Positions 1,935 to 21,171 of a stretch of DNA of 64,000 bases are shown in pieces; positions within the stretch are counted from its first letter, which is position 1, and each line of letters opens with the position of its first letter. Made by a program: the position numbers and the translations under genes. Under the pieces are notes generated by a model. The model searched no databases. It saw nothing but the letters and a program-made list of their open reading frames with translations, and had not been told where the DNA came from. The DNA is from Gammaproteobacteria bacterium. Its GTDB lineage: Bacteria > Pseudomonadota > Gammaproteobacteria > Arenicellales > JAJDZL01. The stretch covers positions 527 through 64,526 of the forward strand of contig JAJEHQ010000038.1 in NCBI GenBank assembly GCA_022823625.1, given 5' to 3'.

Positions 1935-2027
1935 CCACTCAGCGCAAGAAAGTTCCTGCTGAAAAAGGCTCGCCAATCGAGCAGAAAGAACTCCATCCTC
2001 AAGGAAAACAGCGATTCCTCGAAGTGC

Positions 2028-3050: not shown

Positions 3051-3106
3051 ATATCATTAGTGATATATTATTGACAATTGGCAAACAAAACTATCGCTAA
3101 TGATAT
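3051..3106 (+). promoter_or_regulatory. Putative hipBA promoter/operator region
   Basis: ATATCATTAGTGATAT (3051-3066, perfect 6-4-6 palindrome) and the related TATCGCTAATGATA (3092-3105) bracket a TTGACA hexamer (3071-3076) just upstream of hipB. Confidence 0.4.
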
Positions 3107-3107
3107 T

Positions 3108-3440
3108 ATGAAAATAACCAAATTTACGCCAGAGACTGAAATTCTCCAGGAATTTGCCAAACGTTTCGCGATAATTCGCAAGGCGCAAGGTTTCTCGCAA
3201 ACTGAATTGGCAAAAGAAGCTGGCATAGGCGTTGCCACACTTCGCCGAATCGAAAGCGGACGAGACAGCCAGCTTGAAACATGGCTAAAACTTCTTAAGG
3301 CATTGGATATGGCACCCGCCATTGATACACTACTGCCTGAGAAATTCAATTCTCCAATGGTCGAAGTCCTCGCCGGAAAGCGCAGGAAACGTACAAATCT
3401 CTCTCCCTCGTCCGGCATCGTGTGGGGAGATGAAGCCTGA
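3108..3440 (+). CDS. hipB: HipB-like XRE-family HTH antitoxin
   Basis: XRE-type HTH (GFSQTELAKEAGIGVATLRRIESG). The stop overlaps the hipA start (TGATG). I prefer ATG 3108 over the listed TTG 3078, which would place the second operator-like site inside the CDS; the start remains uncertain. Confidence 0.75.
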   Translation: MKITKFTPETEILQEFAKRFAIIRKAQGFSQTELAKEAGIGVATLRRIESGRDSQLETWLKLLKALDMAPAIDTLLPEKFNSPMVEVLAGKRRKRTNLSPSSGIVWGDEA

Positions 3441-4738
3441 TGAGTACAGCGACTGTCAAATTGTGGGGTACCACAATTGGATACGTCTCAATGGATCATG
3501 CGGAACGGCATGCTCGGTTTGAATATGATCCAGAATTTGTGAATTTTGGTATAGAGCCAGCTCCGCTATGCATGCCGCTGCGTAGAGGTCACATTTATCA
3601 GTTTCGAGACTTGCATCCCAGATCTTTTCATGGGTTGCCTGGTATGATTGCCGACAGTCTGCCAGATAAATACGGTAACAAACTTATTGATGTCTGGCTT
3701 GCCCAAACTGGAAGGCAGCCAACACAGTTCAATGCTGTAGATCGCCTCTGTTATACCGGAACGCGCGGCATGGGAGCGCTGGAATTTGAGCCTTCAATCG
3801 GCAGTGAAACAGCAAAGGATAAACGCCTTGAAATCAGCCATCTTGTCGAACTAGCTTCATTAGCTTTCGCCGACAGCAAAACACTCAATACCAAACTCAC
3901 ACCTGGTAATGATCAGAGTGCGTTACTCGATATTCTGAGCGTTGGGACATCGGCGGGCGGTGCCCGCGCCAAGGCTGTCATTGCTTACAATCCGGAGACA
4001 AAAGAAGTTCGTTCGGGGCAGATAGATATGCCGCCCAAGTTTGAACATTGGTTGATTAAATTTGACGGCGTAGCTTTCAGTGGAGATTGGGGTATGGCTG
4101 ATCCATCTGGCTACGGCCTTTTGGAGTATAGCTATCATCGGATGGCAAAGGCTTGCGGCATCGACATGATGGACAGTCGCATATTCAGCGAGAATGGTCG
4201 CAACCATTTCATGACCAGACGCTTTGATCGCAACGAACAGGGTGGTAAAAGTTTTGTCCAGACATTTGCAGCAATTACACATTACGATTACTATGAAAGC
4301 GGCATTCATTCTTATGAGCAACTCTTCATGACAATGCGCCAGTTGGATATGCCGCAGAGTGCTATTGAAGAGCAGTTCCGTCGAGTTGTCTTCAATGTGG
4401 TTGGGTGCAATCAGGACGACCATGTAAAAAACTTTGGTTTCATGATGAATCGTCAGGGTAATTGGGGCATCACACCAGCCTACGATCTTTGCCACGCCGA
4501 AGGCAGTGACTACACTAGATTCCACCAGTTGAGCATTAACGGTAAAACAAATGAATTTGCTATGCAAGACTTAAAAAGCCTTGCAAAATATGCCCGACTG
4601 CCGCGCAATCGCGAAAAGATCGTCCTTGAGCAAACTGTCGATGCGTTTTCAACATGGCACCAAATGGCAAGAGAGCTCGATATACCGAAGACGTTGCAGG
4701 AACACGTATTGCGCACGCTACGCTTGTCTTGGTCCTAA
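3440..4738 (+). CDS. hipA: HipA-family serine/threonine kinase toxin
   Basis: 432 aa. Carries the HipA-type motifs GTSAGGARAKAVI and catalytic DDHVKNFGFMM, and is translationally coupled to the upstream HTH gene. Confidence 0.9.
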   Translation: MSTATVKLWGTTIGYVSMDHAERHARFEYDPEFVNFGIEPAPLCMPLRRGHIYQFRDLHPRSFHGLPGMIADSLPDKYGNKLIDVWLAQTGRQPTQFNAVDRLCYTGTRGMGALEFEPSIGSETAKDKRLEISHLVELASLAFADSKTLNTKLTPGNDQSALLDILSVGTSAGGARAKAVIAYNPETKEVRSGQIDMPPKFEHWLIKFDGVAFSGDWGMADPSGYGLLEYSYHRMAKACGIDMMDSRIFSENGRNHFMTRRFDRNEQGGKSFVQTFAAITHYDYYESGIHSYEQLFMTMRQLDMPQSAIEEQFRRVVFNVVGCNQDDHVKNFGFMMNRQGNWGITPAYDLCHAEGSDYTRFHQLSINGKTNEFAMQDLKSLAKYARLPRNREKIVLEQTVDAFSTWHQMARELDIPKTLQEHVLRTLRLSWS

Positions 4739-4758
4739 ATCGAATTACCGCCGGTCGC

Positions 4759-4791
4759 TACAACACCGAGGCCACCTCGTTGTTGTAATTT
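4759..4791 (+). terminator. Putative rho-independent terminator after hipA
   Basis: 13-bp stem with one mismatch (TACAACACCGAGG / CCTCGTTGTTGTA), a 3-nt loop, then ATTT. It sits about 20 nt after the hipA stop. Confidence 0.5.
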
Positions 4792-4934
4792 CGCACTACT
4801 GGGATTGCAAAACGCCTCAGCATTGAAAATTTTTCGGCTCCCCTTTCCGTGCGAATGCGACAGCGTTATTTATCTGCCATAGTTGAGATGCAAAATGATT
4901 GATACATAAATCAACATAAGTTAAAATAATATTG

Positions 4935-5468
4935 ATGTCAAAATCAACAAATAATTTACAGCATATCGTTAACGAGCTCAGTTTTGCAGCGCGCCAGCGC
5001 AGTATTAACGATACTCACTGGGCAGCGCGAGCCGGTCTGCCGAAAGAAACGCTTTCCAGATTGCGTCGCCGAGACAATTGTGACTTCAGTACACTTGCCT
5101 CATTAGCGAATGCTGTTAACATGTACCTCGGCACTGTGGATACGACACAGCCATTGCTGACACGAGACGGTCATTTTCCAGTCGAAATTGGTCGAGAATA
5201 CGAAGAATCCTTGCTTCGTTTATGTGCATCTGATTCACTGAATTTGGCGCAGTGGGTAGCAATGGGGCCACACTTCTTTATGGCTGGATTGGCTGTAATG
5301 CTTGCCAGTGTGGATAAATATGATCGCTGTGGTCTACTACTGCTGGCTGAAAACATAAGCCCTGGAGCCAGCAAACCAGACATTTTTGAACGCTGGCTAA
5401 AGCATAGTCCACTTAGACCGTCGCGGTTTCTGCCAATGCTGGAAACTACGGCACACCATGCAATTTGA
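4935..5468 (+). CDS. HTH-like protein, putative antitoxin partner of the downstream nucleotidyltransferase
   Basis: N-terminal HTH-like stretch (THWAARAGLPKETLSRLRRRD). 11-nt overlap with the next gene. The listed start 4932 is TTG; ATG is at 4935. Confidence 0.5.
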   Translation: MSKSTNNLQHIVNELSFAARQRSINDTHWAARAGLPKETLSRLRRRDNCDFSTLASLANAVNMYLGTVDTTQPLLTRDGHFPVEIGREYEESLLRLCASDSLNLAQWVAMGPHFFMAGLAVMLASVDKYDRCGLLLLAENISPGASKPDIFERWLKHSPLRPSRFLPMLETTAHHAI

Positions 5469-6063
5469 TTCTTTAGCTCAGCCAAATTTTCTGACTGCGT
5501 TTCAACGGATCGTTCGCCGCATTGCAGAATCGTTGAGAGAAACACCCGAAACGGCTCTACCTGTAAGCATGTATATCTTCGGCGGTGGAGCAGTACACTT
5601 CTATACTGGTGATCGAGTTTCTATAGATATCGATGCTACATTTTCTCACCGCGTCGCATTACCGGATGACCTTGAAGTTTCCTATAGAGCCCCAGATGGA
5701 GCTGCCAAGTTGCTTTATTTTGATCGCCAATTCAATGACAGTTTCGCACTTGTACATGAAGAGGCGTATCGCGATTCTGTACCACTTGAGCTGAGCGAAA
5801 TCGATTCCAAAGTACTGGATATTCGTTTGCTTAGCGCTCTTGATCTTGCTGTGAGCAAGATCAGCCGGTTTGCAGACCATGATCGACAAGATATTGCTGC
5901 TTTGGCGAAACAAGGGTTAATAAATAGCAATGCATTGCGCATCAGGGCAGAGGAAGCCATGAAATTCTACGTTGGGAATTTGGATCGGTTGCAGACCTCA
6001 ATTGATCTCGCCTGCAATATTGTTGCCACAGTAGAAAGACAAAAAGGAAAATTGGCCAAGTAA
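5458..6063 (+). CDS. Minimal nucleotidyltransferase (AbiEii/DUF1814-like), putative toxin
   Basis: Pol-beta-type NTase signature IFGGGAVHFYTGDRVSIDIDATF (GG ... DxD). Short for the family at 201 aa. Overlaps the upstream HTH gene. Confidence 0.55.
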   Translation: MQFDSLAQPNFLTAFQRIVRRIAESLRETPETALPVSMYIFGGGAVHFYTGDRVSIDIDATFSHRVALPDDLEVSYRAPDGAAKLLYFDRQFNDSFALVHEEAYRDSVPLELSEIDSKVLDIRLLSALDLAVSKISRFADHDRQDIAALAKQGLINSNALRIRAEEAMKFYVGNLDRLQTSIDLACNIVATVERQKGKLAK

Positions 6064-6316
6064 ATTCAGGAAATTTGACATTGTCAGAAAGTAGTTGCGG
6101 GTGCGGGCTGGATGAGAATTCCGCCCCAATTTCCTCATTGAGTATACGGACTATATGTTAAAATATTGAGTCCCGAGATTCCCAAGCCGCAAGTTATTCT
6201 GTTGCTGGTGCTTGGGTTTCTTTTCTTGGATTGGTGATTTCAACTGAAATTGGTACACTGCCCAAGGTGTAAAACAATTAAAGTTTGTGTCCACCACATT
6301 TTGAATGGATGTCGTC

Positions 6317-6394
6317 GTCCCCATCGTCTAGTCAGGTCTAGGACACCAGCCTTTCACGCTGGCGACGGGGGTTCGAATCCCCCTGGGGACGCCA
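6317..6394 (+). tRNA. tRNA-Glu (anticodon UUC)
   Basis: Acceptor stem GTCCCCA/TGGGGAC. Anticodon stem CCAGC/GCTGG with loop CTTTCAC (TTC central). T arm GGGGG-TTCGAAT-CCCCC. Discriminator G plus encoded CCA. Close to the E. coli tRNA-Glu sequence as I remember it. Confidence 0.93.
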
Positions 6395-6405
6395 GAAATA
6401 TTGAT

Positions 6406-6442
6406 TCGCACCTTCTTCCAATGGATTAGGTGCGATTCTTTT
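6406..6442 (+). terminator. Putative terminator after tRNA-Glu
   Basis: Stem TCGCACCT / AGGTGCGA with a rather large 14-nt loop, followed by TTCTTTT. Confidence 0.45.
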
Positions 6443-6568
6443 ATCCACTATGGAAATCGTCTCAAAAAAGTTTCAACATTCAAGCCCTCTCTAACTACCC
6501 ATTTGTTGTGACGAGTAGTTAGCACTTTTTCGTATCATTCGAGTCAAATGTAGAAAACACTTTGAATT

Positions 6569-9421
6569 ATGGCTATGAATAAGTTTCACATCGGTTTTCG
6601 CGTGTTGAGTCTACTTCTTGGACTCTTCCTATCAGTTGCAGTAGCGGCGGAGTTTCAGAAAAGTCCAAATGATCATCGCGAATATCGCGCATTTCAACTC
6701 GACAACCAGTTGCAGGTGCTAGTCATATCAGATCCTGAAACATCTCAAGCAGCAGTTTCATTGGCGGTCCGAATCGGTGCGGGTGATGATCCGCCGGACC
6801 GAGCAGGTCTCGCTCACTACCTTGAACATATGATGTTTCTTGGGACCGAAAAATATCCTGAGCTGGACAGTTACCGAAGGTATATCGATCAGAATGGCGG
6901 GTCATCGAATGCGTTTACTGCGATTGATCTCACCAACTACAACTTTCGAATTGATGCCAATAAACTTCAACCTGCATTGGACCAATTCTCTCAGTTTTTC
7001 ATCGCACCGTTATTTCCAGAGCAACAAATTGATCGTGAGCGAGCGGTTGTGCATGCAGAGTACGAAATGCGCACTCAACGCGACTCTGTGCGACGCTGGT
7101 CAGCGATGCGACAAGCCTACAATCAAAATCACCCAGCATCCCGATTTGCGTCTGGCACCAAAGATACGCTAGCTGGAGATATCCGTGATGAACTGATTCA
7201 GTTTTTCGAAGAAAAGTACAGTGCTAATCTTATGAATCTGGTGATTTTGGGTCGTGAGCCGTTGGATCAGCTTCAGATGTGGGTGGAGGATATGTTTTCC
7301 GATATCAGAAACAATCAGTATGCTGAGCGGGAAATCACTGAACCTCTGTTTAGTCCGGGTAGCTTACCAGCATTACTGAAGTTCAAAACTTTGAAACATG
7401 ATCCAACTTTGGCTCTCATGTTTCCGCTGCAAAATCTCGATCCGCACTGGCGTGAACGTCCTGGATCTTACATTGCTCACCTACTTGGGCACGAAGGGCA
7501 GGGTAGCCTTCTGTCTGAGCTAAAGGATCAGGGATGGGCACTTGGACTTTTTGCTTCGACGAGTGACACTGGAATTACGACTTCCGCATTCAACGTGCAT
7601 ATCTCTCTGACTGAGGAGGGATATCAGAACTGGGATCAAGTTGCGGGATATGTTTTTCAATACATCCGGGAAGTTCGAAATCGCGGAATAGAAGAATGGC
7701 GATTCAAAGAGAACCAAATTCTTGCTGAAATTGGATTTCGATTCGCTGAACTAGATGATCCCGCAGGTGCAGTAACTGGCTTGGCATCTCAGCTTCATAA
7801 ATACCCCCAGAACGAGCTGTTTCCAGCTCTATACCTGGTCGAAAATTATGATCCCGATCTGATAACTGATGTTCTGGATCGAATGACACCCGAAAATGCT
7901 TTAGTAATTCTCGCTGGCGCAACCGTGGAAACTGACCAAATTACTCCCTACCTCCGGTCTGAATTCTCGATCATAAAAATTGAACCGGAATTGGTTACAA
8001 ACTGGAATTCGGATGTTGCTGACACTTCAAATTGGTTACCACTACGGAACGAATTTCTACCAGAAAATCTAGATTTGGTTGCAGGTAATGAAGCGGCCGT
8101 ACCGGAGCAAATTTATAGCAGTCCTGGATTTGAGTTGTGGCATCAGACCGATACCTCGTTTGATGTTCCGCGGGCAAGCTTTTTTGTGACAGTACGAAGC
8201 CCAATAACAAAGTCATCTGCGAAAAACTCAATTTTGTTGTCCTTGTATATCGATGCGCTTAATGATCAGTTAAATGAGTATGTTTACCCAGCCCTGATTG
8301 CTGGACTAGACTTCAGTCTCTATCCTCACTCGCGCGGCTTCAGTTTTCGAATTTCCGGATTCAACGACAATCAGTCTGCTTTGCTGGAGCGAATACTTGA
8401 GACGCTAAAGTCTGCTGAATTTGATCCAGACCGGTTTGAGATTCACCGGCAGGAAATGATTCGCGACATTGAAAACAGTCGCAGAGATACAGCCTATCGT
8501 CGTACCATTTCGGATTTCTATTCGACAATTCTCATTCCCAATTGGAGTGAAGAAGAGCAACTACGTGCATTGGATGAAATCGACTTTGATGACCTTCTAG
8601 TATTTGGTAGTGAAGTTCTAGAACGAATCAATGTTGTAGCGCTTTCACACGGCAATGTTGAGTACGAAACCTCAAAATCAATGGGACAGATGGTTGCAAC
8701 TCTTGTCGATCCCGAGAACGTAGTTGAGGTGCATAAATCCGATGTGGTCGTTCTTCCGGGTGAAGGTCCATACCGACGGCTTATTGAAATTGAGAATGCA
8801 GATTCAGCGATTTCGCTTTACCTTCAAGGTGCTGACAAGTCAATTCGTGAACGGGCATATATGAGTCTCTTATCTCAAATTATTCAGACACCCTTTTTCT
8901 CCGATTTGCGTACGGTACAACAAATGGGATATGTGGTTTTCTCGCACTACATTCCGGTTGGACGAGTTCCTGGAATCATGTTCGTTATTCAATCTCCTGA
9001 TGTTGTTCCAGACGACATGAACGCTGCGGTTGAAGTTTTCCTTGAAAATTTCCCAGACTGGTTGGCAGAGCGGGTTAACAGTGATGAATTTGAAGCATAC
9101 AAAAGCGGTATTACTGGGCGGTTGTTGAAGAAATACGACTCACTTGGTGAAAAGTCAGAAGTCTATTGGACTGCAATTGACCAAAAGGAATTTAATTTTG
9201 ACAGCCGGAAGGTCTTAGCTCAGGAAATTGAGAAGATTGATCGGCAGTCATTTGACCAGTTTGTACAAAATCTGCTAATCGGAAAGTCTGATCATCGTTT
9301 AGTCGTATTGGGCTATGGCGAGAACCATGGGTTGCCTGTTGACCAGGTTTTAAGTGTCGGGCTTACGATCACAGATCTCGATAGTTTCAAGCAGGGATTG
9401 GAACTGTTTCCACAGGGTTAG
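6569..9421 (+). CDS. M16-family (insulinase/pitrilysin-like) zinc metallopeptidase, secreted
   Basis: 950 aa. N-terminal signal peptide (LLLGLFLSVAVAAE). Inverted zinc motif HxxEH in GLAHYLEHMMFLGTEKYP. Confidence 0.9.
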   Translation: MAMNKFHIGFRVLSLLLGLFLSVAVAAEFQKSPNDHREYRAFQLDNQLQVLVISDPETSQAAVSLAVRIGAGDDPPDRAGLAHYLEHMMFLGTEKYPELDSYRRYIDQNGGSSNAFTAIDLTNYNFRIDANKLQPALDQFSQFFIAPLFPEQQIDRERAVVHAEYEMRTQRDSVRRWSAMRQAYNQNHPASRFASGTKDTLAGDIRDELIQFFEEKYSANLMNLVILGREPLDQLQMWVEDMFSDIRNNQYAEREITEPLFSPGSLPALLKFKTLKHDPTLALMFPLQNLDPHWRERPGSYIAHLLGHEGQGSLLSELKDQGWALGLFASTSDTGITTSAFNVHISLTEEGYQNWDQVAGYVFQYIREVRNRGIEEWRFKENQILAEIGFRFAELDDPAGAVTGLASQLHKYPQNELFPALYLVENYDPDLITDVLDRMTPENALVILAGATVETDQITPYLRSEFSIIKIEPELVTNWNSDVADTSNWLPLRNEFLPENLDLVAGNEAAVPEQIYSSPGFELWHQTDTSFDVPRASFFVTVRSPITKSSAKNSILLSLYIDALNDQLNEYVYPALIAGLDFSLYPHSRGFSFRISGFNDNQSALLERILETLKSAEFDPDRFEIHRQEMIRDIENSRRDTAYRRTISDFYSTILIPNWSEEEQLRALDEIDFDDLLVFGSEVLERINVVALSHGNVEYETSKSMGQMVATLVDPENVVEVHKSDVVVLPGEGPYRRLIEIENADSAISLYLQGADKSIRERAYMSLLSQIIQTPFFSDLRTVQQMGYVVFSHYIPVGRVPGIMFVIQSPDVVPDDMNAAVEVFLENFPDWLAERVNSDEFEAYKSGITGRLLKKYDSLGEKSEVYWTAIDQKEFNFDSRKVLAQEIEKIDRQSFDQFVQNLLIGKSDHRLVVLGYGENHGLPVDQVLSVGLTITDLDSFKQGLELFPQG

Positions 9422-9919: not shown

Positions 9920-10440
9920 CTGAAACTCAATCTCAGCGACTGTTTGTTGCCTTGTGGCCTGAGGATGAAGTCAGGACAAAGCTGTCAAACAAACAACTCG
10001 AATTGAACCTAGGTGATTATGGTCGCCTGGTTCCTTCTGCAAACCTTCACATCACATTGCTTTTTCTGGGAGATGTGCCACTTAGTGATATTCCAGAAAT
10101 CGCAAGTTTTGTGAATTCAATAGAACTAACGCCGTTTTCCTTTACCATCAGCAGAATTGGATTTTGGCCGCACAACAAAATTGTATGGGCAGGGCCAGAA
10201 GAAACAAAAGCAGAGTTGGATGACCTGTCGAATCAGATTCGAATCGGACTAAAGAGATATGTGTCGGATCGGCGAAGATTTGCACCACACGTAACGCTTG
10301 CTAGAAAAGTCAGGCGGCGCGTGCAATGTGAATTGACACCGATTGAATGGCGAGTAGGAAAAGTCTATCTGGTCCGCTCTGTTCTGAGTCACAAAGGCTC
10401 ACAGTACAAACTGATTGCCTCTTCTGGAAGTTCAGGTTAA
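9916..10440 (+). CDS. thpR: RNA 2',3'-cyclic phosphodiesterase (2H phosphoesterase, LigT/ThpR)
   Basis: Two HxT/S motifs (LHITLLFLG and PHVTLAR) at the expected spacing. 4-nt overlap with pncC. Confidence 0.85.
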   Translation: MTETQSQRLFVALWPEDEVRTKLSNKQLELNLGDYGRLVPSANLHITLLFLGDVPLSDIPEIASFVNSIELTPFSFTISRIGFWPHNKIVWAGPEETKAELDDLSNQIRIGLKRYVSDRRRFAPHVTLARKVRRRVQCELTPIEWRVGKVYLVRSVLSHKGSQYKLIASSGSSG

Positions 10441-10525
10441 TCTGAAGTTTGAAGGCAATTTAGCTGCCGAACCCTGCTGATTCCAGCATATTTTGAAAAT
10501 CTTATTTCAGCTTTCTACCTACAAT
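10436..10525 (+). repeat. Island direct repeat, left copy part A
   Basis: Hand alignment with 18937-19026 gives 78 of 90 positions identical with no gaps. It begins at GTTAA, which contains the thpR stop codon. Confidence 0.85.
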
Positions 10526-11310
10526 TCGCTTCGCCTGTCCGGATAACTGATCGATTTCAGCATACTCAGTGACCGTTGCTTGTCATTGGGCAGCGAGGTC
10601 AACTGAAACTGAAGCGCTTTATCCTGTCTGCGCTTGGGTTGACACCTGTTGACCGTAATGGTTTCGAGATGTTTCGATCAAGGAGCGGAAATAATAGGCT
10701 TGAGAGCCATTCGGCAAATAGAGCACTGGCGATTTTTTTTCCCCCTGCAAGGACCTGTGTGCGGGCAACAACGGATCAAGCACCGCGTTGATTTGAACCG
10801 GTTGTGGGTCGGAAAACAATAATTCCCGCCACGCTTCGCGCATATGCCATTCGACATAATAGGCAAGAATGCAGACAAAGATGTGATAGCGTTCCACCAA
10901 GGTAGTGTCGTACCACCACCGACAGATTACCAACTTGGTATGCAGACGGATAATGCAGGCCGCAATCATCACCATAACCAAGCTTCGGTTGGAAGATGCT
11001 TTGGAGCTGATCAGTGCGTCAAAACACTGTTTATTCCGCGTTCAGATAAGTTTATTCCGCGTTCAGATTAAGTAGAATACGCACTCAAAGTCATTTTGAC
11101 ATCGGTAAGCTGTTTTCCCTCAAGCGCGGCGTGCACCAGTTCGATGACCGTCAGGGCAGTTTGCTCAGTTCGGCGAGGGTTTTCAGTTGAACTTTTCCGT
11201 GTTGATTCCGGTAGCTCGAGCGCCAGGGTGGAGCGATAGAATATGTTTCCCTGTTTGGAGGTAGTCTCAGCGATGTGCATGGGTGGGTGTGGTTCCGATC
11301 ATGCATATTG
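10526..11310 (-). pseudogene. Decayed IS1634/IS4-type insertion sequence (transposase fragments only)
   Basis: Minus-strand N-terminal stub MHIAETTSKQGNIFYRSTL (from 11280) and a C-terminal piece ..VERYHIFVCILAYYVEWHMREAWRELLF.. (within 10981-10619) cannot be joined in one frame. They are flanked by CCTACAAT (10518-10525) and CCTAAAAT (11311-11318), a possible 8-bp target duplication. Confidence 0.65.
11029..11070 (+). repeat. 21-nt tandem duplication at the junction of the two transposase fragments
   Basis: GTTTATTCCGCGTTCAGATAA (11029-11049) is immediately followed by GTTTATTCCGCGTTCAGATTA (11050-11070). Confidence 0.9.
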
Positions 11311-11412
11311 CCTAAAATATGAAGAAAAACAAACTCTCTAACGGTAAAAACTTCAAAAGATCAAAGGGATATCTCGCGATTACTGATTAAAGTTGGTCAG
11401 AACATCGAGTTA
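11311..11412 (+). repeat. Island direct repeat, left copy part B
   Basis: Aligns by hand with 19019-19121 at roughly 80% identity with 2-3 small indels. It ends at GTTA, which in the right copy overlaps the hydratase stop codon. Confidence 0.75.
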
Positions 11413-11443: not shown

Positions 11444-12514
11444 ATGAAGCCACATAAATTCCAAGATGATTCTGGAAAGACACTGGATGCTCACTTTCAA
11501 ACGCAGGAAAGGACGTTAATTATGCTCTCGAGAAGTGGCACCATTGGATCCCCTACAGCGCGAAATACAGAATATGGTCCAGCACTACGACTCCTTCTCA
11601 AACGAATTGATCGATCATTTTTGGAACTGGAAGGAGTCTGGGTGGATAGCAAGCATGTAAGTAAATTACCGCCAAATGAAAAACGAATATGGTCACCAAC
11701 GGATTCGGGCTTGTCACGGACAGAGTGGTTCACCACGTTGAGCAATCGTATGGCGGCTGTGGGACGTGACTCACGTAGCCGAAGCCGTGGTAATACTAAC
11801 AAGAGACTTCGCTTCGAATTTGCGGGCAATCATTCAGCCAAATTGATTGAGCGGATTTTGGGCTGGGGTGAAACAGATGCTAAACCATCAGGGAGGTTGT
11901 CACCCAGTGAAAAAGATCTAGTTTCTGCCAATCACATATGGCACGCTGTGGAACGACTCCTTCCTTCTTCTTCCATTAGGCATCTTTTCCATGATTCCAC
12001 TGAATATGATGTGGTTGCAGACGATGGGACACGTCTTCCACCGAAGGCAGTGTTCAGTTTGGCCGCTACTGAAGCTCTCGGTCGTGAGGTTGATACTTCT
12101 GACTTTGAAAGTGATTCCTTGATACGCAGTATTATCGACAAAGTGGGTTTTCAGGTGGTGCCAAAAAACCAGTCGCTAGATCACGTATTAGTCCCATTGG
12201 ACTCTGAAGAGCGCGAATGGACCGAAGGAGGTCGTAGGCTTGTAAAACACTATCGCCGCGAACGGAGCTTTAGGCTATCACAGGCAAAAAAAGAGCAGTT
12301 CAAACAAGACCACGACGGTCGATTGCACTGTGAACGTTGCAAAATGGACCCGATTGAAGTCTACGGATGCAGTTCCGGCGAAGCGTGTATCGAAGTGCAT
12401 CACAAAAATCCCTTAGCCTCCCAGCCGACAGAAAGGGTGACTCACCTAGAAGATTTAATGTGTGTCTGCGCGAACTGCCACCGAATCATTCATCGTGAAC
12501 TGTCCAATCCATAA
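11444..12514 (+). CDS. HNH (His-Me finger) endonuclease with an unassigned ~290-aa N-terminal region; candidate restriction component
   Basis: C-terminal HCERCK..CIEVHHKNPL..CVCANCHRIIH. First gene of the island cargo, co-directional with dcm. Confidence 0.75.
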   Translation: MKPHKFQDDSGKTLDAHFQTQERTLIMLSRSGTIGSPTARNTEYGPALRLLLKRIDRSFLELEGVWVDSKHVSKLPPNEKRIWSPTDSGLSRTEWFTTLSNRMAAVGRDSRSRSRGNTNKRLRFEFAGNHSAKLIERILGWGETDAKPSGRLSPSEKDLVSANHIWHAVERLLPSSSIRHLFHDSTEYDVVADDGTRLPPKAVFSLAATEALGREVDTSDFESDSLIRSIIDKVGFQVVPKNQSLDHVLVPLDSEEREWTEGGRRLVKHYRRERSFRLSQAKKEQFKQDHDGRLHCERCKMDPIEVYGCSSGEACIEVHHKNPLASQPTERVTHLEDLMCVCANCHRIIHRELSNP

Positions 12515-12773
12515 CTCGGCTGCTTGCACTTAATCTGAATTTTGCATAAACGATTCCCATGGCTCTGTGATCCTGTGGTATATCAAGCAGATTTGTTCGT
12601 GAATGTTCCTCACACCTCTTCAATTCCTCGGTGCTGAGAATGGACTTGAAAGATTTAGGCATCCGTTATTGTTTTTCAAGCAAAAACAGTATATTACGAT
12701 GGCATCACTTAATGTTACCGGAAGGTGGTGATTTGACAATAATTTTCGCAAATAGAAAAAGACAGTCGCTGAC

Positions 12774-14333
12774 GTGATAGAGAGTCGTAGGAAAACATTT
12801 CCGATCGTTGACGTATTTGCTGGTCCGGGTGGTTTGGGAGAGGGTTTCACATCGTATATTGAAGGGTCAGACATTCCACGATTCCATAATGCAGTATCTA
12901 TCGAATGCGATAACTATTCATTCAAGACCCTACATTTAAGACACTTTTTGAGAAGCTTCCCTCACGGAGAATTTCCCGATGAATATTACCAATATCTGCG
13001 GCGCGAAATAACTCTGTCTGATTTATATGGCCAATTTCGCCAAAACAAGGAATTAGCTGACCAATCTGTGTTAAAAATTGAACTCTGTAAGGAAAACCGA
13101 AAAACTGTCCGCGATCATATAGTTGAACGATTAAAAGGACGAAATCGTTGGGTGCTAATTGGTGGTCCTCCGTGTCAAGCATATTCTCTTGTAGGACGGT
13201 CTCGTATGAAGGGAGACCCAAATCATGAAAGTGACCCTCGACACAAGTTGTATAAAGAATACCTTCAGATCATAGCAGATCATGAACCTCCAGTATTCGT
13301 GATGGAGAACGTCAAGGGATTGCTATCCGCACATGTGAACGGTGAGTTTGTGTTGACTAAGATTTTGTCCGACTTAAAGTCCCCAAAATCCGCTCAAGGT
13401 ATCAGGGGAGATGCATTGGGCTATACATTACACGGTTTATCAGAGGAAAATGTATCGGGACAAGATGATCCTAAGCAATTTTTGGTTCGCTCCGAGAAAT
13501 ATGGTGTTCCACAAGCACGACACAGGGTTTTCATAGTCGGTGTACGTAAGGACCTTTTCGGTAATACTCATCCCGACAAATTGAAACCGCATAAACCTCC
13601 CTCTGTCAGGGAGACAATCGGAGATCTGCCACCGATACGAAGTGGTGTATCACGCAATATAGATTCGTTTACCGCTTGGTACAACGAGATAGGCACAATA
13701 AATCCAAGTTTAATCCGTACTGAGTTAGATGGATGCGAATACGCTGACGTTGTAGCAAACGAATTGAGAAAAAATATAGAGACAAAATTACAACATCTTG
13801 AGCGGCAATCCACCGAATATCGAGTTGCATTAAATAGAGAATTTGCAGTTTTTGACGAGGTGTATGACACTCGTCTTAACTTTCTAGAGGGTCATGAAAC
13901 GCGAAGCCACATGGCATCGGACCTTCGCCGTTATTTCTTTGCAGCGTCATTTGTAGCTGCTACTGGAGAAAGCCCTAAGCTTGCAAATTTTCCAAGAAGT
14001 TTGCTTCCTAATCACAGAAATATTTCATTGGGGTGTGAAGGGAAAATGTTTTCGGACCGATTTCGAGTACAGTTGCCAGACCAACCATCCACCACAATCA
14101 CCTCGCACATTTCAAAAGACGGACACTACTTCATTCACTACGATGCAAGTCAATGTCGCAGCCTGACCGTAAGAGAGGCGGCCCGGCTTCAAACTTTTCC
14201 AGACAATTACAAGTTTGAAGGGCCAAGGACTGCACAGTATCATCAAATTGGTAATGCGGTTCCTCCGTATCTCGCACAGCAGATTGCTGTGGTTGTTGCG
14301 GGAATCCTAGATCGAGTCACGAATGAGCAATGA
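12774..14333 (+). CDS. dcm: DNA (cytosine-5)-methyltransferase
   Basis: Motif I DVFAGPGGLGEGF, motif IV GGPPCQAYS, motif VI VMENVKGLL, motif VIII GVPQARHRVFIVG, motifs IX/X TVREAARLQTFPDNYKF..QIGNAVPPYLA. GTG start as listed. Confidence 0.92.
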   Translation: MIESRRKTFPIVDVFAGPGGLGEGFTSYIEGSDIPRFHNAVSIECDNYSFKTLHLRHFLRSFPHGEFPDEYYQYLRREITLSDLYGQFRQNKELADQSVLKIELCKENRKTVRDHIVERLKGRNRWVLIGGPPCQAYSLVGRSRMKGDPNHESDPRHKLYKEYLQIIADHEPPVFVMENVKGLLSAHVNGEFVLTKILSDLKSPKSAQGIRGDALGYTLHGLSEENVSGQDDPKQFLVRSEKYGVPQARHRVFIVGVRKDLFGNTHPDKLKPHKPPSVRETIGDLPPIRSGVSRNIDSFTAWYNEIGTINPSLIRTELDGCEYADVVANELRKNIETKLQHLERQSTEYRVALNREFAVFDEVYDTRLNFLEGHETRSHMASDLRRYFFAASFVAATGESPKLANFPRSLLPNHRNISLGCEGKMFSDRFRVQLPDQPSTTITSHISKDGHYFIHYDASQCRSLTVREAARLQTFPDNYKFEGPRTAQYHQIGNAVPPYLAQQIAVVVAGILDRVTNEQ

Positions 14334-14338
14334 TTGTG

Positions 14339-14736
14339 GTGGATCATATTTCTAAAAAAACACAGAAGTTGGAATATTTCCCGAATCATGGGACAAAAAA
14401 CTACACCCGAACTCATCATTCGAAAGTTGCTTAACCGTGCGGGTATAGATTTCAACTTCACGCAGCCAATTTACCAGGCAAACCCGAATTTGTTCTACCG
14501 AAGTATCGAACAGTGACATTCGTCAATGGTTGTTATTGGCATAGGCGTGCAGGCTGTGGCAAGACAACGATTCCTAAAACCCGAACAGAATTTTGGCTAG
14601 AAAATTTTGTAAGACAATTGAACGAGATAAACGAATCTAGGCTGAACTTAAATACTCGGCTGGATTGTACTTATTTGTATGGGAGTGCGAGTTAAAATCA
14701 GACACGGATTCTAGCCTGAAATGCGTTAAACAATAA
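14339..14736 (+). pseudogene. vsr: Very-short-patch repair endonuclease gene (vsr), disrupted
   Basis: Vsr-like segments lie in three frames: VDHISKK (frame of 14339); KKHRSWNISRIMGQKTTPELIIRKLLNRAG; GYRFQLHAANLPGKPEFVLPKYRTVTFVNGCYWH..PKTRTEFWLE; KTIERDKRI-TAG-AELKYSAGLYLFVWECELKSD..*. Shifts occur at or near the A7 run (14354-14360), the GGG run (~14441-14443) and the A4T4 run (14601-14608). There is an in-frame TAG at 14638-14640. Confidence 0.8.
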
Positions 14737-14873
14737 TATCATTTAACTACAATGTAGAATATATTATTGATAAACAATATATATAAGAGATCAAATAGTA
14801 TTATTATTCACCTTCACGTAAAATATTGTATATATTGTGGACAAATCAATTTATGTGGTGTGTTGGTCATGCT

Positions 14874-15110
14874 ATGAGAGATAAGCGCAAAAAATTTGTC
14901 GAATTAGCAGAAGCCCGCGTTAACAAGACAATCAAAAACATTCGCCTTATTGGGAATTTGTCGAACAAGAGTTTTTATGAATACAGTAAGGACGATGTAA
15001 GTAGAATTTTCCGAACTCTTCAGAAAGAGCTAGATGCTGCAAAAAGCCGATATGTCGATAGTGGACAGGACAGTGATGATTCCTTTCGACTTAGAAAACA
15101 GGGGAAGTGA
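14874..15110 (+). CDS. Small basic helical protein, first gene of the GHKL operon (unknown family)
   Basis: The listed ORF starts at TTG 14826; ATG 14874 gives 78 aa (MRDKRKKFVELAEARVNKTIKNIRLIGNLSNK..). The stop overlaps GTG 15107 (GTGA). No motif recognised and the start is uncertain. Confidence 0.5.
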   Translation: MRDKRKKFVELAEARVNKTIKNIRLIGNLSNKSFYEYSKDDVSRIFRTLQKELDAAKSRYVDSGQDSDDSFRLRKQGK

Positions 15111-16984
15111 AATTCATGACGATTGGACTTGAATTTCTTGAAAACAGTGGCGGTGAAGCAGAGGGACTTAGCGATGCCGGTATTGAAACTTTCAGAGAAA
15201 GTCCATTTGCGGCGGTGGCTCGCGAAACCGGTCAAAATAGCCGAGACGCGCGAGACAAAGTTGATGAACCTGTAGTGTTGAAGTTTGACGTAATTTCAAT
15301 TCCCGAATGCGAGTTCCCATCAATAGACGACTATCGAACAGTGGTCGGCCTTTGTTTTGCAAAATCAAAAAATGCAGACAGGGAAAAAGAAATCGGATTC
15401 TTCAAGAATGCTGTTGAAATTCTAAAAAATAGTGAACTTAGAGTACTTCGTATCGCCGACTTCAATACAAAGGGTGTGCGAGGTCCATGTGAAGAAGGCC
15501 GACCATTTCACACCTTGGCAAAAACAGATGGTATGAGCGTTAAAGAGGAGATTGGTTCAGGCGGTTCATTTGGAATAGGAAAAAACGCTGCATTCGCATT
15601 ATCTGACCTTCAGACAGTTTTTCTTTCCACTCGATATCGTGAAGATGGTAGCGACTCTGATAGTGTTTTGTGTATGGGCAAAACTCAGTTGATTTCTCAT
15701 ACTGACACTGAAGGTATCGAGCGGCGCAGGAAGGGATACTGGGGTCAAGTAGAAGATTACATGCCACTGGACGATCTCTCGGATATTCCGGATTGGCTTC
15801 GAAGAACCGAGCAGGGAACTTCAATCTTCTCGATTTGCCCAAGAAGTGACAAGACGAACTGGCAATATAGGATAACAGCGGCAATCCTGATCAATTTTTT
15901 CTGTGCAATTGAGCGAAGCGAAATGGAGTTTGAAATTGACGACGGCTCAATTTTGATTAACAAGAATACTATTCAATCTCTATTCAACGATGCTGATGTG
16001 GAATCCGCTGTCAATGAATTGGATATGAGCTACAGATTTGACGCTGCAAAGAGACTACATGAATGCCTAATAGATAAACACACTTCAACTTATGTAATAA
16101 ACATACCAGACTTAGGTGCTATCAATATTCATACCCTACTTCGCGACGGTATGAATTACACAGTTGGAATCATCCGGAATGGCATGTACATTACTGACAA
16201 TTTCAGAAACTTCAACCACCCATTTGAAAGATTCCCGCTTCACAAGGAGTTCGCAGCAATTATTGAACCAAAAGATTCAAAAGAAAGTGAGTGGTTTAAA
16301 CGTTTGGAGAACCCTAGTCACAACTCTCTTTCAGCGGAGCGGATTACAGACCCCGATATGCGCGAACTTGGGAAGCGATTGTTTGGCCAACTCGCGCGGG
16401 AGATTCGAAGTTACCTTAGAAGTATTGCAGTGTCACCGCCTACTGAAAGTATCGATCTTGATGAATTAAATGAATTTTTCGTAACTGATGGTGCAAGAAC
16501 AGAGGATGAAGTGGGTACCGAAACTGATCCACGTGCAAAACAATTGACCACTATGAAGCGAACTAGGTCTTACTATTCACTACATGGCGGTCAAGGATAT
16601 GGTACGCCGGAAGATCCACCATTACCAGGTCAGAGAACTACTGCTGGTTCAGGTACCAACCCGGGGCAAAATCACCGTCGGCGCAAAATAGTTCCACCTG
16701 TTGAATTAATTTCCGAGCGTGCACTGATCCCGGATATCAAACACCCAAAGAAAAGGCAACTGATATTTTCGTCACCTGTGAGTTCGGAAATTTCAATTGG
16801 TATCGCTGCGAGCGGCCTTAATTCAAGTGAAAAACTCGCTGTTGCAACCACATCGATTGGACGCGTAAGGAATGGTGAAATTGTACTAACGTGCAATCAA
16901 AACGATCGATATACCTTAGATGTTGAATTTGAGAATGCATATCAAGGACCGGTTGAGTTTTATGCTTATCCACCAGACAAATAA
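15107..16984 (+). CDS. GHKL/Bergerat-fold ATPase (MORC/Hsp90-like HATPase), 625 aa
   Basis: N-box ARETGQNSRDA (ExxxNxxDA), G1-like RIADFNTKGVRG, G2 GSGGSFGIGKNAAF. This is followed by ~300 unassigned aa, a Gly/Pro-rich linker (GGQGYGTPEDPPLPGQRTTAGSGTNPGQNHRRRK) and a ~90-aa C-terminal domain. An alternative ATG at 15116 has a GGGGAAG Shine-Dalgarno-like site 8 nt upstream. Confidence 0.85.
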   Translation: MKFMTIGLEFLENSGGEAEGLSDAGIETFRESPFAAVARETGQNSRDARDKVDEPVVLKFDVISIPECEFPSIDDYRTVVGLCFAKSKNADREKEIGFFKNAVEILKNSELRVLRIADFNTKGVRGPCEEGRPFHTLAKTDGMSVKEEIGSGGSFGIGKNAAFALSDLQTVFLSTRYREDGSDSDSVLCMGKTQLISHTDTEGIERRRKGYWGQVEDYMPLDDLSDIPDWLRRTEQGTSIFSICPRSDKTNWQYRITAAILINFFCAIERSEMEFEIDDGSILINKNTIQSLFNDADVESAVNELDMSYRFDAAKRLHECLIDKHTSTYVINIPDLGAINIHTLLRDGMNYTVGIIRNGMYITDNFRNFNHPFERFPLHKEFAAIIEPKDSKESEWFKRLENPSHNSLSAERITDPDMRELGKRLFGQLAREIRSYLRSIAVSPPTESIDLDELNEFFVTDGARTEDEVGTETDPRAKQLTTMKRTRSYYSLHGGQGYGTPEDPPLPGQRTTAGSGTNPGQNHRRRKIVPPVELISERALIPDIKHPKKRQLIFSSPVSSEISIGIAASGLNSSEKLAVATTSIGRVRNGEIVLTCNQNDRYTLDVEFENAYQGPVEFYAYPPDK

Positions 16985-16998
16985 CGCGAAATTCGGAT

Positions 16999-17832
16999 AT
17001 GAAAATTAACGACAAAATGCGTTTTCCTCATCCAGTGTTAAGCAAACACTCCGAAGATTACATCGAGGGTGAATTTTTTGCCGAATTCTCATATCAAAGC
17101 ACTGATGACAATCAGTTAGAAATTACTTCTACTTTTACTATCGACGACGAGAAGCTTAAGGCGTTGATTCATAATCAGCGAGCCGGTATCGGCTATTTTT
17201 TGATTTGTCGGCCTACGTATTACAACTATCTTCAAAGTGCTTCTCTCGGTGAGTTCAAGAAATATTTCGATTTATCTTTGCTTCATGGTGAAATTACGGT
17301 TCGTCCGACTATATGGGCTTTGAAAGACATAATTAATTTTCAAAGCACCAACATCCACGAGGAATTTGGAGGTAGTGTAAATATTCGAAAGGGTTCGATT
17401 ATCGCAATAGGACCTGAATTTAGATTTTCAGTTGACCCTAAAAAGTTTAAGCCGTTCGAATCTATATTTAACCTTTCGATTAACGACGATATTCAAAAAG
17501 GTATGATTGAAGTCGATGCTGATCAGGCGAAAATCGCTATTCTAGCTGAGAAGGGAACTCACGAAAAAATTGCGAATATGCGAAGTTCTTCCGAAGGTCG
17601 TTCTATTTTGCTCAGTGCTGTATACATGCCGGTTATTGCGGAGATTGTTGGTAGGTTACAAAGAGGCGATAAAAACCTTGAGTCTCACAGGTGGTATAAA
17701 GTTTTTGCAGCGAAATGTGCTGACCTTGGTATTCAACCAGATAACGAAACTGAGACTCCACTCAACGTAGCTCAGCAGTTGTTAAACGCCCCACTTGAGC
17801 GAACTTTTGAAGCTCAGTCGACTAACTTATGA
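16999..17832 (+). CDS. Hypothetical protein, GHKL-operon gene 3 (277 aa)
   Basis: Long ORF 14 nt after the ATPase stop. No recognisable catalytic motif; only a weak D...DEK (TIDDEKLK) that could hint at a PD-(D/E)xK fold. Confidence 0.6.
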   Translation: MKINDKMRFPHPVLSKHSEDYIEGEFFAEFSYQSTDDNQLEITSTFTIDDEKLKALIHNQRAGIGYFLICRPTYYNYLQSASLGEFKKYFDLSLLHGEITVRPTIWALKDIINFQSTNIHEEFGGSVNIRKGSIIAIGPEFRFSVDPKKFKPFESIFNLSINDDIQKGMIEVDADQAKIAILAEKGTHEKIANMRSSSEGRSILLSAVYMPVIAEIVGRLQRGDKNLESHRWYKVFAAKCADLGIQPDNETETPLNVAQQLLNAPLERTFEAQSTNL

Positions 17833-18635
17833 ATAATGAACTAAGACATATTTCTGAGGGGGTTCTTGATGATTTGCGCAAGTCAATATCATCTAATCTG
17901 TCGCGATATAGAGGTCAGGGGTTTAATGACCTTGCAGATGAATATAAGTGGAATATTCATCTTGAAATTGAAGTCGACAATGGCTTGTTGTCTGAATTAG
18001 ATTCGACTGTACAGAAGAACATCGTAGAAATCGATTTGAAAAATTCAAGAATTGTCGGAAAAGCATTAGCGAATCTCACACCATCACTTGCCAACGAAGA
18101 ATTAATTTGGGTTCGCTTATCTCATGTTGAAGCATTTGAGTATTCGAGGATTCGTTGGTTGCCAAATTCCTCTGATAGTGTCTTAAAAAAAAATATCGAG
18201 ACTCATTTATTTGCATCGACTCAAACAGCAATTAGAGATGATCATGCAATATCGAGACTGTGGTGGAATTATCAAATTGCGCTAGCTTCTATGCCCGAAG
18301 ACGTTGATCTTGCACTAAAGTTAATTATGAAAACGGCTGATATAAGATCAAACTTTGTGGAACGTATATGGATGAGTAGTCGTCGCCCGATTGCAGGCGC
18401 AATTCTGAGAGCAATGAATACAAATTCCGAAATTACAGCAACCGAGAACAATTTCAGAACTTTTATGAAAATCATTAATCGTCATGGTGGTGGAATCGTA
18501 TTCGAAGCTTTGAACGATGGTGAGATTGATTTGTTTGTTGAAGAATGCTGTGACCAAGCCATAAGTCTGGCAGGTCAAACTGCCCAACATTCTCGAAGTA
18601 ATCAAGATACCAAATACGTTAACGGTGAGATTTGA
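17829..18635 (+). CDS. Hypothetical protein, GHKL-operon gene 4 (268 aa)
   Basis: ATGA overlap with gene 3. Helical-looking, with a conserved-looking HAISRLWWNYQIA stretch. No family recognised. Confidence 0.6.
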   Translation: MNNELRHISEGVLDDLRKSISSNLSRYRGQGFNDLADEYKWNIHLEIEVDNGLLSELDSTVQKNIVEIDLKNSRIVGKALANLTPSLANEELIWVRLSHVEAFEYSRIRWLPNSSDSVLKKNIETHLFASTQTAIRDDHAISRLWWNYQIALASMPEDVDLALKLIMKTADIRSNFVERIWMSSRRPIAGAILRAMNTNSEITATENNFRTFMKIINRHGGGIVFEALNDGEIDLFVEECCDQAISLAGQTAQHSRSNQDTKYVNGEI

Positions 18636-18637
18636 AG

Positions 18638-18853
18638 TTAGAAAGATTTGGCATTGGTAATCTGAAGCACCGAGAAGATCCCGAAACAAATAAAGGCGAC
18701 CGGTACCCATCCCGGGATACTTAATCCTAAGAATGTCCAGTAACCTTCCGCGCATTCACCAGTTCCTCCAAACACAATTGCCAGTGCACCAAAAATTGGT
18801 TTGTGGGCAAAAATTGTTTCGATTGTGGGGAAACACTCTGGAATTTTGTCCAT
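18638..18853 (-). CDS. Small hydrophobic protein (71 aa), uncertain
   Basis: Two hydrophobic stretches (IFGALAIVFGG, GWVPVAFICFGIFSVL). Convergent with the operon and 2 nt from its stop. No family recognised. Confidence 0.3.
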   Translation of the reverse strand: MDKIPECFPTIETIFAHKPIFGALAIVFGGTGECAEGYWTFLGLSIPGWVPVAFICFGIFSVLQITNAKSF

Positions 18854-18936
18854 CGGTGCATTCTGTAATCAGACCGACGCGCGCCAGAAAAACGGCGAAT
18901 TTCGTGGAGTAGAAGTTAACCATGCTGAATCAATCC

Positions 18937-19121
18937 GTTAATCTGAAGTTTGAAGGCATACTAGCCGCCGAGCTCTGCTGATACAAGCATATTTTAAAAA
19001 TCTTATTGTAGCTTTCTGCCTACAATATGAAAAATACAAACCCTCCCTAACGGTAAAAACCTCAAAAGAACAAGGGGATATCGCGAGAACTCTGACAAAA
19101 ATTTGTCAGAATTTCAAGTTA
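18937..19121 (+). repeat. Island direct repeat, right (uninterrupted) copy A'B'
   Basis: A' (18937-19026) runs directly into B' (to 19121). This corresponds to the native-looking thpR-hydratase spacer. Confidence 0.85.
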
Positions 19122-20699: not shown

Positions 20700-20736
20700 A
20701 TAACACACATACTAAACGCTTGAATTATGTAAGTTG

Positions 20737-21171
20737 ATGAAAAACAAGCAGAAAAAACGACCTCAAAATGTCGTTGTTCAATTCAATTCAATCCAGGAAG
20801 TCATTGACTATCTGAAGGAAGCGTTTGAGGATGGGTCTCCAAAATTGATTTCAGCCACTCTTGGTGAAGTTGCTAAATCGAAAGGTATGACTGCTGTCGC
20901 AGCGGAATCCGGGTTAGGACGTGAAAGCTTATACAAAGCACTTTCACATACAGGTAATCCGAGTCTTTCGACAATACTCAGTGTTCTACGCTCGCTAGGA
21001 CTTCAGTTGCGGCCATCGGAATGTTCAACGGATGCATCTTCAACTGTTGGCAATATTGTTTCTTGGGAACGTGACTCGCCAAGCTCTTCCGGGGATATTT
21101 ACCTATTTGTTTGTTCTGAGAGTTCAAGTTCTCAGACACTCATCAAATCAACTGAACCCAAGTCGGTCTAA
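20737..21171 (+). CDS. Addiction-module antidote-type HTH protein (COG3636-like) with Ser-rich C-terminal extension
   Basis: IDYLKEAFEDGSPKLISATLGEVAKSKGMTAVAAESGLGRESLYKALSHTGNPSLSTILSVLRSLGLQL matches the antidote-family consensus as I remember it. About 45 extra C-terminal residues. No RelE/HigB-like partner is visible upstream. Confidence 0.7.
   Translation: MKNKQKKRPQNVVVQFNSIQEVIDYLKEAFEDGSPKLISATLGEVAKSKGMTAVAAESGLGRESLYKALSHTGNPSLSTILSVLRSLGLQLRPSECSTDASSTVGNIVSWERDSPSSSGDIYLFVCSESSSSQTLIKSTEPKSV

Follow-up and report, generated by a model that had tools for sequence, protein, structure and literature searches.

A stretch of 64,000 nucleotides (nt) from a Gammaproteobacteria bacterium (GenBank assembly GCA_022823625.1, contig JAJEHQ010000038.1, positions 527 to 64,526), hereafter the window, carries at 14874-18635 an operon of four genes downstream of a cytosine methyltransferase gene, dcm, and the remains of a repair gene, vsr. 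An initial reading made from the sequence alone had proposed this operon, with a GHKL ATPase at its centre, as a candidate undescribed defence system. The locus belongs to PDC-M33, a candidate cassette already catalogued but uncharacterised, and is therefore not new as a system; new are the predicted GHKL fold of its largest protein, a natural fusion of the other two cassette proteins, the small gene in front of them and a near-obligate linkage to Dcm and Vsr, all of which lie outside the PDC-M33 definition. Our preferred reading, held at a probability of about one half, is that of a methylation-linked, restriction-like defence module driven by an ATP-dependent DNA clamp. Throughout, A, B and C denote PDC-M33A, PDC-M33B and PDC-M33C, S78 denotes the product of the 78-amino-acid (aa) gene, and residue numbers in A are those of P0001, the gene caller's product of 622 aa.

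Gene layout and catalogue status

The core of the locus consists of the following features.

12774-14333, + strand: dcm, C5 cytosine DNA methyltransferase, 519 aa, intact (Pfam PF00145, 9e-47; TIGR00675, 1.4e-40)
14330-14695, + strand: vsr pseudogene, relic of a very-short-patch repair endonuclease gene (Pfam Vsr fragment, 4.3e-5)
14874-15110, + strand: S78 gene, 78 aa, from the list of open reading frames (ORFs), no family assignment
15116-16984, + strand: PDC-M33A, predicted GHKL + transducer ATPase, 622 aa from the ATG at 15116 (the ORF opens at GTG 15107, giving 625 aa)
15116-15850, + strand: A residues ~1-245, predicted Bergerat-fold ATP-binding domain (N-box E37/N41/D44, G1 D115/N117/G120, G2 G150-K156)
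15851-16435, + strand: A residues ~246-440, transducer-like middle domain with a long final helix, 413-438 (AlphaFold2 model)
16442-16687, + strand: A residues 443-524, Pro/Gly-rich linker predicted to be disordered (predicted local distance difference test score, pLDDT, below 50), of variable length and Pro/Gly-rich across the family
16709-16969, + strand: A residues 532-618, C-terminal beta-sandwich (AlphaFold2 model)
16999-17832, + strand: PDC-M33B, 277 aa (PADLOC match, 1.4e-50)
17829-18635, + strand: PDC-M33C, DUF6339 protein, 268 aa (Pfam PF19866, 4e-40; PADLOC, 3.5e-29)

Four co-directional ORFs thus follow the intact dcm and the vsr relic on the + strand, as the sequence-only reading had described, and its account of their junctions holds in part: B and C overlap in an ATGA and A and B are separated by 14 nt, whereas the GTGA overlap proposed between the S78 gene and A is not retained. 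All homologues of A start MxIGLEFL and P0001 starts MTIGLEF, so that translation of A most likely begins at the ATG at 15116, leaving a gap of 5 nt after the S78 stop codon. Further upstream, the stop codon of dcm and the ATG of the vsr relic form another ATGA overlap, and the relic is separated from the S78 gene by an AT-rich spacer of 178 nt, because of which the four-gene operon may possess a promoter of its own; a scan for consensus promoters and terminators returned fewer sites than in shuffled sequence.

The earlier statement that the gene set matches no named system did not survive a scan against PADLOC, in which the three larger proteins correspond to PDC-M33A (3e-94, 314.9 bits, residues 4-482), PDC-M33B (1.4e-50, residues 1-272) and PDC-M33C (3.5e-29, with three more M33C models also matching), while the 268-aa protein belongs in addition to Pfam DUF6339. 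The three genes are contiguous, on one strand and in the order A>>B>>C of the definition FAM_02818>>FAM_02838>>FAM_01881, so that all three defining families are present in the same order and strand. The definition comprises these three genes only; a named candidate thus accounts for three of the four operon genes, and the S78 gene and the association with Dcm and Vsr fall outside it. At E<=0.1, PDC-M33 models were the only ones in the PADLOC library to match any of the four operon proteins. Mza is a multigene defence system around a GHKL ATPase of a kind often linked to cytosine methylases; its partner domains are absent from the four proteins, and its models are presumably part of the PADLOC library.

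PDC-M33 corresponds to cassette CAS_00129, with 98 instances, which carries the remark "Assign as candidate" and no annotation (Payne et al., bioRxiv 10.1101/2024.01.29.577857). It emerged from a guilt-by-embedding screen for cassettes that lie inside BREX, DISARM and Type I restriction-modification (R-M) systems, from which 145 curated candidates entered PADLOC (bioRxiv 10.1101/2024.01.29.577857). A literature search found no paper that describes or tests PDC-M33 or DUF6339. PDC-M33 is accordingly a guilt-by-embedding candidate, and its defensive role is inferred from genomic context.

Proteins of the cassette

Protein A is predicted to be a GHKL + transducer ATPase of the topoisomerase VI-B/MORC/Hsp90 type in which all catalytic residues are conserved. 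An AlphaFold2 (AF2) model based on 57 sequences (pLDDT 81.3, predicted template modelling score 0.68) was compared with the PDB by Foldseek at a significance threshold of E<=1e-3, and all 21 significant matches were GHKL + transducer ATPases (E 2e-9 to 3e-5, ~480-560 aligned columns, 9-13% sequence identity), which bears out, by predicted structure, the earlier assignment of the 625-aa protein to this class. The matches include topoisomerase VI-B (9o0g_B at 2e-9; also 1mx0 and 1z59), TRAP1/Hsp90 (4j0b, 4z1i), GyrB (3zkb) and MORC2, MORC3 and MORC4 (9cdh, 6o1e, 5ix2, 7k7t), and the topoisomerase VI-B and MORC alignments cover both the Bergerat and the transducer-like domains. The Bergerat motifs quoted in the sequence-only reading are present in A and kept across the family: E37, N41 and D44 of the N-box, D115, N117 and G120 of G1 and G150, G153 and G155 of G2 are invariant in the 57 sequences, with F152 and I154 nearly so.

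Sequence profiles detect no such relationship. The Pfam models HATPase_c and HATPase_c_3 gave no match at E<=5 in 14 family members, A found no counterpart in NCBIfam or PHROGs, and PDB sequences searched with profile hidden Markov models of the entire protein and of its first 250 residues yielded no GHKL chain; the GHKL identity of A therefore rests on its predicted structure. Beyond the ATP-binding domain, whose N-terminal strand is a possible dimerisation strap, the Gly/Pro-rich linker and small C-terminal domain noted earlier are both visible in the model. The C-terminal domain has a faint match to Pfam MOV-10 Ig-like (0.076) and a weak sequence match in the PDB (4les, 0.009), and no nuclease-like domain appears in the AF2 model within the ~300 residues that had been left unassigned.

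Comparison with known GHKL ATPases places A close to, and at the same time apart from, several of them. Its fold and its N-box, G1 and G2 residues are shared with topoisomerase VI-B, Hsp90/TRAP1 and MORC2/3/4; unlike the modules of these proteins, however, it carries no CW, coiled-coil or client-binding domain, and unlike topoisomerase VI it has no detected Topo VI-A/Spo11-type (TOPRIM/5Y-CAP) partner beside it. Prokaryotic MORC and paraMORC GHKL ATPases are known from R-M operons that also encode Dcm, Vsr and nucleases of the HNH or EcoRII-like type (Iyer, Abhiman and Aravind, 2008, PMC2292703), and A resembles them in its combination of a GHKL domain with an S5-type transducer, in its neighbourhood of methylase, Vsr and nuclease genes and in its patchy, laterally mobile spread. 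For paraMORC1-5, the comparison consisted of a search with HATPase_c_3, which had no match in the 14 members of the A family.

The partners of A contain no Walker, HNH, helicase or PD-(D/E)xK motif according to Pfam, NCBIfam, PHROGs and PDB sequence profiles and, for B, a fold search as well, in agreement with the sequence-only reading. The AF2 model of B (pLDDT 85.6) shows a beta-sandwich in residues 26-183 and helices in residues 185-276. Foldseek comparison with the PDB and the viral BFVD gave no match at E<1e-3, but only generic FnIII/Ig-like beta-sandwich matches at E>=6e-3 and a TM-score of about 0.2 (best ~0.23, to FnIII-type receptors), and the sequence profile of B retrieved nothing from the PDB. 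Its most conserved feature is an N-terminal R-(F/Y)-P-H-P-V-L-S...D-Y motif.

Protein C matches Pfam DUF6339 (PF19866) with 137.8 bits against a gathering threshold of 23.2, and thereby joins a family of 1209 clusters at 50% identity (E<=1e-3). In a diverse alignment of 97 sequences, Y27, H99 and R109 are invariant and W94, W110, H126, F128, R143, L144, W145, W146, R179, R210 and N217 nearly so. Profiles from close and from diverse alignments of C found nothing in the PDB, and neither B nor C had a match in PHROGs or NCBIfam. Some DUF6339 homologues (P0396, P0406, P0426, P0430, P0443, P0446) carry a conserved C-terminal extension of ~100 aa; an HRDC-like reading of this extension, made by eye, received no support from Pfam and was dropped.

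B and C form one functional unit. A protein of 528 aa (P0410) is a natural fusion of the two, with residues 8-270 matching the B profile (hhalign, 98.9%) and residues 342-512 belonging to DUF6339, and this fusion, together with the conserved adjacency of the two genes, indicates that they act together. When the profiles of B, C and S78 were aligned by hhalign with EcoRII-C, Vsr and Dcm profiles from related loci, probabilities did not exceed 0.1%, which argues against a hidden restriction-endonuclease fold in any of the three at that sensitivity.

For S78, searches of Pfam, PADLOC, NCBIfam and PHROGs gave no credible match, and a search of all fetched proteins with its profile found no fused copies. 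In 42 of 78 fetched loci (39 of the 69 complete ones) a homologue nevertheless directly precedes A, and the ratio of nonsynonymous to synonymous substitution rates (dN/dS) is about 0.09; the S78 gene is thus a real gene.

Distribution, methylase linkage and history

Across 185,579 species, each represented by one genome, 321 loci with relatives of A were found, of which 78 were fetched. They derive from Alpha-, Beta- and Gammaproteobacteria, Thermodesulfobacteriota, Nitrospinaceae, Dadabacteria, Verrucomicrobia, Planctomycetes, Cyanobium, one Bifidobacteriaceae metagenome-assembled genome and Bryobacter. Complete A-B-C sets, always adjacent and in fixed order, are present in 69 of the 78, and these 69 are the base of the counts that follow; most of the other nine are truncated at contig ends or disrupted. 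The recurrence of one gene order in so many loci shows that the operon is not a chance arrangement, and the co-occurrence that the sequence-only reading had proposed to check is confirmed for A, B and C, with S78 joining them in somewhat more than half of the loci.

Whether the cassette is always accompanied by a C5 methyltransferase, a question raised in the same reading, is answered largely in the affirmative: 65 of 69 loci have a Dcm gene no farther than 10 kb away, and in 59 the distance is at most 3 kb, while a query with the window Dcm detects none in the remaining four. Vsr is found within 10 kb in 60 loci, and an EcoRII-C nuclease (Pfam PF09019, 1e-63) in 34. The 145 other ORFs in the flanks yielded no additional conserved partner and no conserved helicase; scattered neighbours comprise HNH_2 (4) and MvaI/BcnI (3) genes, defence-type ATPases, relaxases and housekeeping genes. 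In at least two loci, an ORF of ~270 aa without a Pfam match follows C (L001, 13405-14220; L002, 13591-14382; 47% mutual identity); it is absent from the window and may be an occasional fifth gene. A survey of 2.9 million viral contigs detected the cassette in 3 loci, which speaks neither for nor against defence.

The Dcm proteins separate into two classes. That of the window, whose top PADLOC model is DrmMII (2.3e-91), belongs to a long, DrmMII-like class (defined by E<1e-50) present at 21 loci, none of which holds an EcoRII-type nuclease and 18 of which hold the S78 gene, whereas the other class is mostly part of EcoRII-type R-M units. Within the long-Dcm subtype, the methylase is thus left with the cassette as its sole candidate restriction partner. 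The locus shares with EcoRII-type R-M the pairing of Dcm and Vsr and, in the 34 related loci, the nuclease itself, but differs from it in that the island of the window has no EcoRII-C gene and its longer Dcm class never occurs with one. A DrmMII-type C5 methylase is likewise a point of resemblance to class 2 DISARM; as an explanation of the window, however, DISARM was rejected, the DrmA helicase, DrmB (DUF1998/MZB), DrmC and DrmE being absent from the island at 10.4-19.1 kb.

Next to the intact methylase gene, vsr is a relic, as had been proposed. Compared with the intact vsr of the close relative L082, to which it is 79% identical in nucleotide sequence, it contains four single-base indels; its remains appear in the window as two short Vsr-like ORFs. 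A tblastn alignment of intact Vsr switches among three frames, crosses an in-frame stop and shows PDIV changed to PEFV. The four indels fall within ~370 nt, a density that would predict ~40 in the four-gene operon of ~3.7 kb if it were equally unconstrained, and the operon has none. Values of dN/dS between 0.09 and 0.23 for dcm, the S78 gene, A, B and C (0.17-0.21 for dcm against its orthologues), with no disruption in any of the five, show that these genes are under purifying selection. An apparently functional dcm beside a dead vsr also implies cytosine methylation without dedicated T:G repair, unless a second vsr lies elsewhere in the genome, and C-to-T mutation at Dcm sites should therefore rise.

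These observations bear on the idea that A, B and C are a portable repair accessory of Dcm and Vsr, in which a MutL-like A and a lesion- or DNA-binding B-C unit stimulate T:G repair independently of the host's MutL and MutS. Such a role would be in keeping with the frequency of Dcm (65/69) and Vsr (60/69) at these loci whether or not a nuclease is present, with the membership of A in the same GHKL + transducer class as MutL, and with the binding and stimulation of Vsr by MutL in Escherichia coli (PMC2715241; for Neisseria, PMC6116569). The likeness to MutL-Vsr very-short-patch repair (PMC2715241) lies in the pairing of a GHKL ATPase with Vsr and Dcm; it does not extend to the window, where vsr has become a pseudogene and the operon has stayed intact under a dN/dS of 0.09-0.23 (a second vsr may lie elsewhere in the genome), nor to protein A, which is not a detectable MutL homologue by sequence or among its top folds, the significant Foldseek matches being topoisomerase VI-B, Hsp90, MORC and GyrB. 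Nine of the 69 complete loci, moreover, have no Vsr within 10 kb, the cassette entered the catalogue because it was found embedded in BREX, DISARM or Type I R-M systems, and in L082 it sits in a defence island. We regard a repair role as quite unlikely.

The two nearest relatives, L082 (A 90% identical) and L084 (A 74%), have exactly the order dcm - vsr - small gene - A - B - C; their Vsr proteins, 149 and 141 aa long, are intact. The surroundings in L082, with UvrD, DEAD-helicase, MZB(DUF1998), NERD and SLFN-helicase genes, are those of a defence island with DISARM-like components. At 770-7607 of that locus, genes for a DEAD-helicase (1075 aa), an MZB/DUF1998 protein (619 aa) and a NERD/SLFN-helicase-like protein (577 aa) precede the cassette. 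This layout resembles that of DISARM, the long Dcm then taking the part of DrmMII, and it fits the discovery of PDC-M33 by embedding.

Positions 12773-18942 of the window are collinear with L082 at 87% nucleotide identity. In L082, C is followed by an intact dsbB; the window retains its 3' part, and ~195 nt of the L082 dsbB region are absent from the remnant region at 18638-18942. As the shared block includes this 3' part of dsbB, the cassette arrived by horizontal transfer as one block together with flanking donor sequence, and the dsbB fragment marks its right-hand edge. The cassette is mobile, and this subtype travels as a six-gene unit of dcm, vsr, S78 gene, A, B and C. Around it, the island of the window comprises the following further features.

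18638-18853, - strand: dsbB 3' fragment, 71 aa (Pfam DsbB, 9.8e-10, profile positions 91-147 of 148)
10436-10525 (left) and 18937-19026 (right), unstranded: direct repeat D1, 90 nt, 87% identity, island boundary
11334-11412 (left) and 19043-19121 (right), unstranded: direct repeat D2, 79 nt, 80% identity, island boundary
11444-12514, + strand: HNH-domain protein, 356 aa (PHROG HNH, 3e-6; Pfam HNH, 0.014; PADLOC mREase_IV, 1.7e-4)

The direct repeats said to bound the island could thus be located as the pairs D1 (87%) and D2 (80%). They represent two copies of the thpR-hydratase intergenic sequence, the left of which is interrupted by an insert of ~800 bp. This insert (10526-11333) contains ORFs without Pfam matches and a perfect 19-nt tandem pair, GTTTATTCCGCGTTCAGAT x2, at 11029-11068, and may be a degraded insertion element. 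Outside the island, between fdxA and mutS, 20734-21171 encodes an addiction-module antidote protein of the HI1420-downstream type (PF21716, 6e-23).

The HNH gene lies within the island, upstream of dcm, but is not included in the block shared with L082 and L084. Its HNH domain is C-terminal, the N-terminal ~250 aa are unassigned, and the PADLOC match to Type IV methyl-directed restriction enzymes is weak; homologues occur near the cassette in two of the 78 loci, L021 (3e-75) and L005. The protein may be a Type IV enzyme or may pair with the methylase as its cognate nuclease, and is a possible companion nuclease, though not part of the conserved core.

It is also the natural candidate in the window for a further explanation, according to which A, B and C are an accessory motor of the MORC/paraMORC kind that loops or clamps DNA for a separate Type II R-M nuclease (EcoRII-like, HNH or MvaI/BcnI; here perhaps the protein at 11444-12514). 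EcoRII-type enzymes need several sites at once, and looping would plausibly help them to meet this need. A looping role was indeed proposed for MORC and paraMORC proteins in such operons by Iyer et al. (PMC2292703), and nuclease genes are frequent enough to lend the idea substance, EcoRII-C sharing the cluster in 34 of 69 loci, HNH_2 in 4 and MvaI/BcnI in 3, and the window itself encoding an HNH protein a short distance before dcm. Roughly half of the loci nevertheless have no recognisable nuclease adjoining the cassette, among them every one of the 21 with a long-class Dcm; the HNH gene, which is outside the shared block, is missing in L082 and was not seen in L084 (whose contig has only ~340 nt upstream of dcm), and the cassette moves as a unit without a nuclease gene. 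Such an accessory role is, in our judgement, unlikely.

The mobility of the cassette invites the question of whether it serves the mobile element itself, as a Dcm-coupled addiction or post-segregational module or through a function in DNA topology or segregation of the island. Its spread is patchy and horizontal, other loci have integrase and relaxase genes in their vicinity, A resembles the DNA clamps of topoisomerase VI-B and MORC, and no effector is recognisable. The island of the window, on the other hand, has no integrase or replication gene, the linkage is to Dcm/Vsr, R-M and defence genes and not to mobility genes, A has no TOPRIM/Spo11-like partner, and the fold of B matches none. Element maintenance therefore appears very unlikely.

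Proposed function

In the methylation-linked defence module that we favour, Dcm would mark the host's own DNA. A, by analogy with the topoisomerase VI-B, MORC and Hsp90 class, would dimerise on ATP and close around or loop DNA, and the B-C unit would dock on A and supply DNA recognition, effector activity or both. Given its invariant Tyr, His and Arg, C (DUF6339) may be the best effector candidate, and S78 would be an optional accessory or regulator. Vsr is the usual companion of Dcm and repairs T:G mismatches; since vsr has decayed here and the other genes are intact, the function of A, B and C does not require it.

Several points weigh against this reading. The literature search found no experiment on the PDC-M33 cassette, and fold searches recognised no nuclease or other effector in A or B. 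Furthermore, 34 of the 69 loci also hold a complete EcoRII-type R-M system, which would make further restriction there redundant in part, and A, B and C could instead be accessory. The constant partners of the cassette are Dcm and Vsr, not a nuclease, which fits a repair role too, and in four complete loci the window query detects no Dcm.

A more specific form of the defence reading is doubtful, though it deserves to be spelled out. It would amount to a new kind of methylation-linked immunity without a conventional nuclease, in which A, as a clamp of the topoisomerase VI-B/MORC type, and a B-C heteromer of folds not seen before use Dcm methylation as the mark of self and entrap or silence unmethylated DNA, much as eukaryotic MORCs silence transposons, or else cut it by way of a new DUF6339 catalytic fold bearing the Tyr, His and Arg.

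The interest of the locus lies in its functionally blank kind and in the absence of a recognisable nuclease. With the present analysis PDC-M33, listed in PADLOC without annotation, gains a testable anatomy comprising an ATPase (A), a B-C unit, an optional S78 and a link to Dcm and Vsr. Should A, B and C assist Vsr, they would constitute a portable analogue of MutL, compensating for the mutations that cytosine methylation brings with it. Should they restrict unmethylated DNA with no recognisable nuclease, the cassette would represent either a bacterial counterpart of MORC-type silencing or a new nuclease fold within DUF6339.

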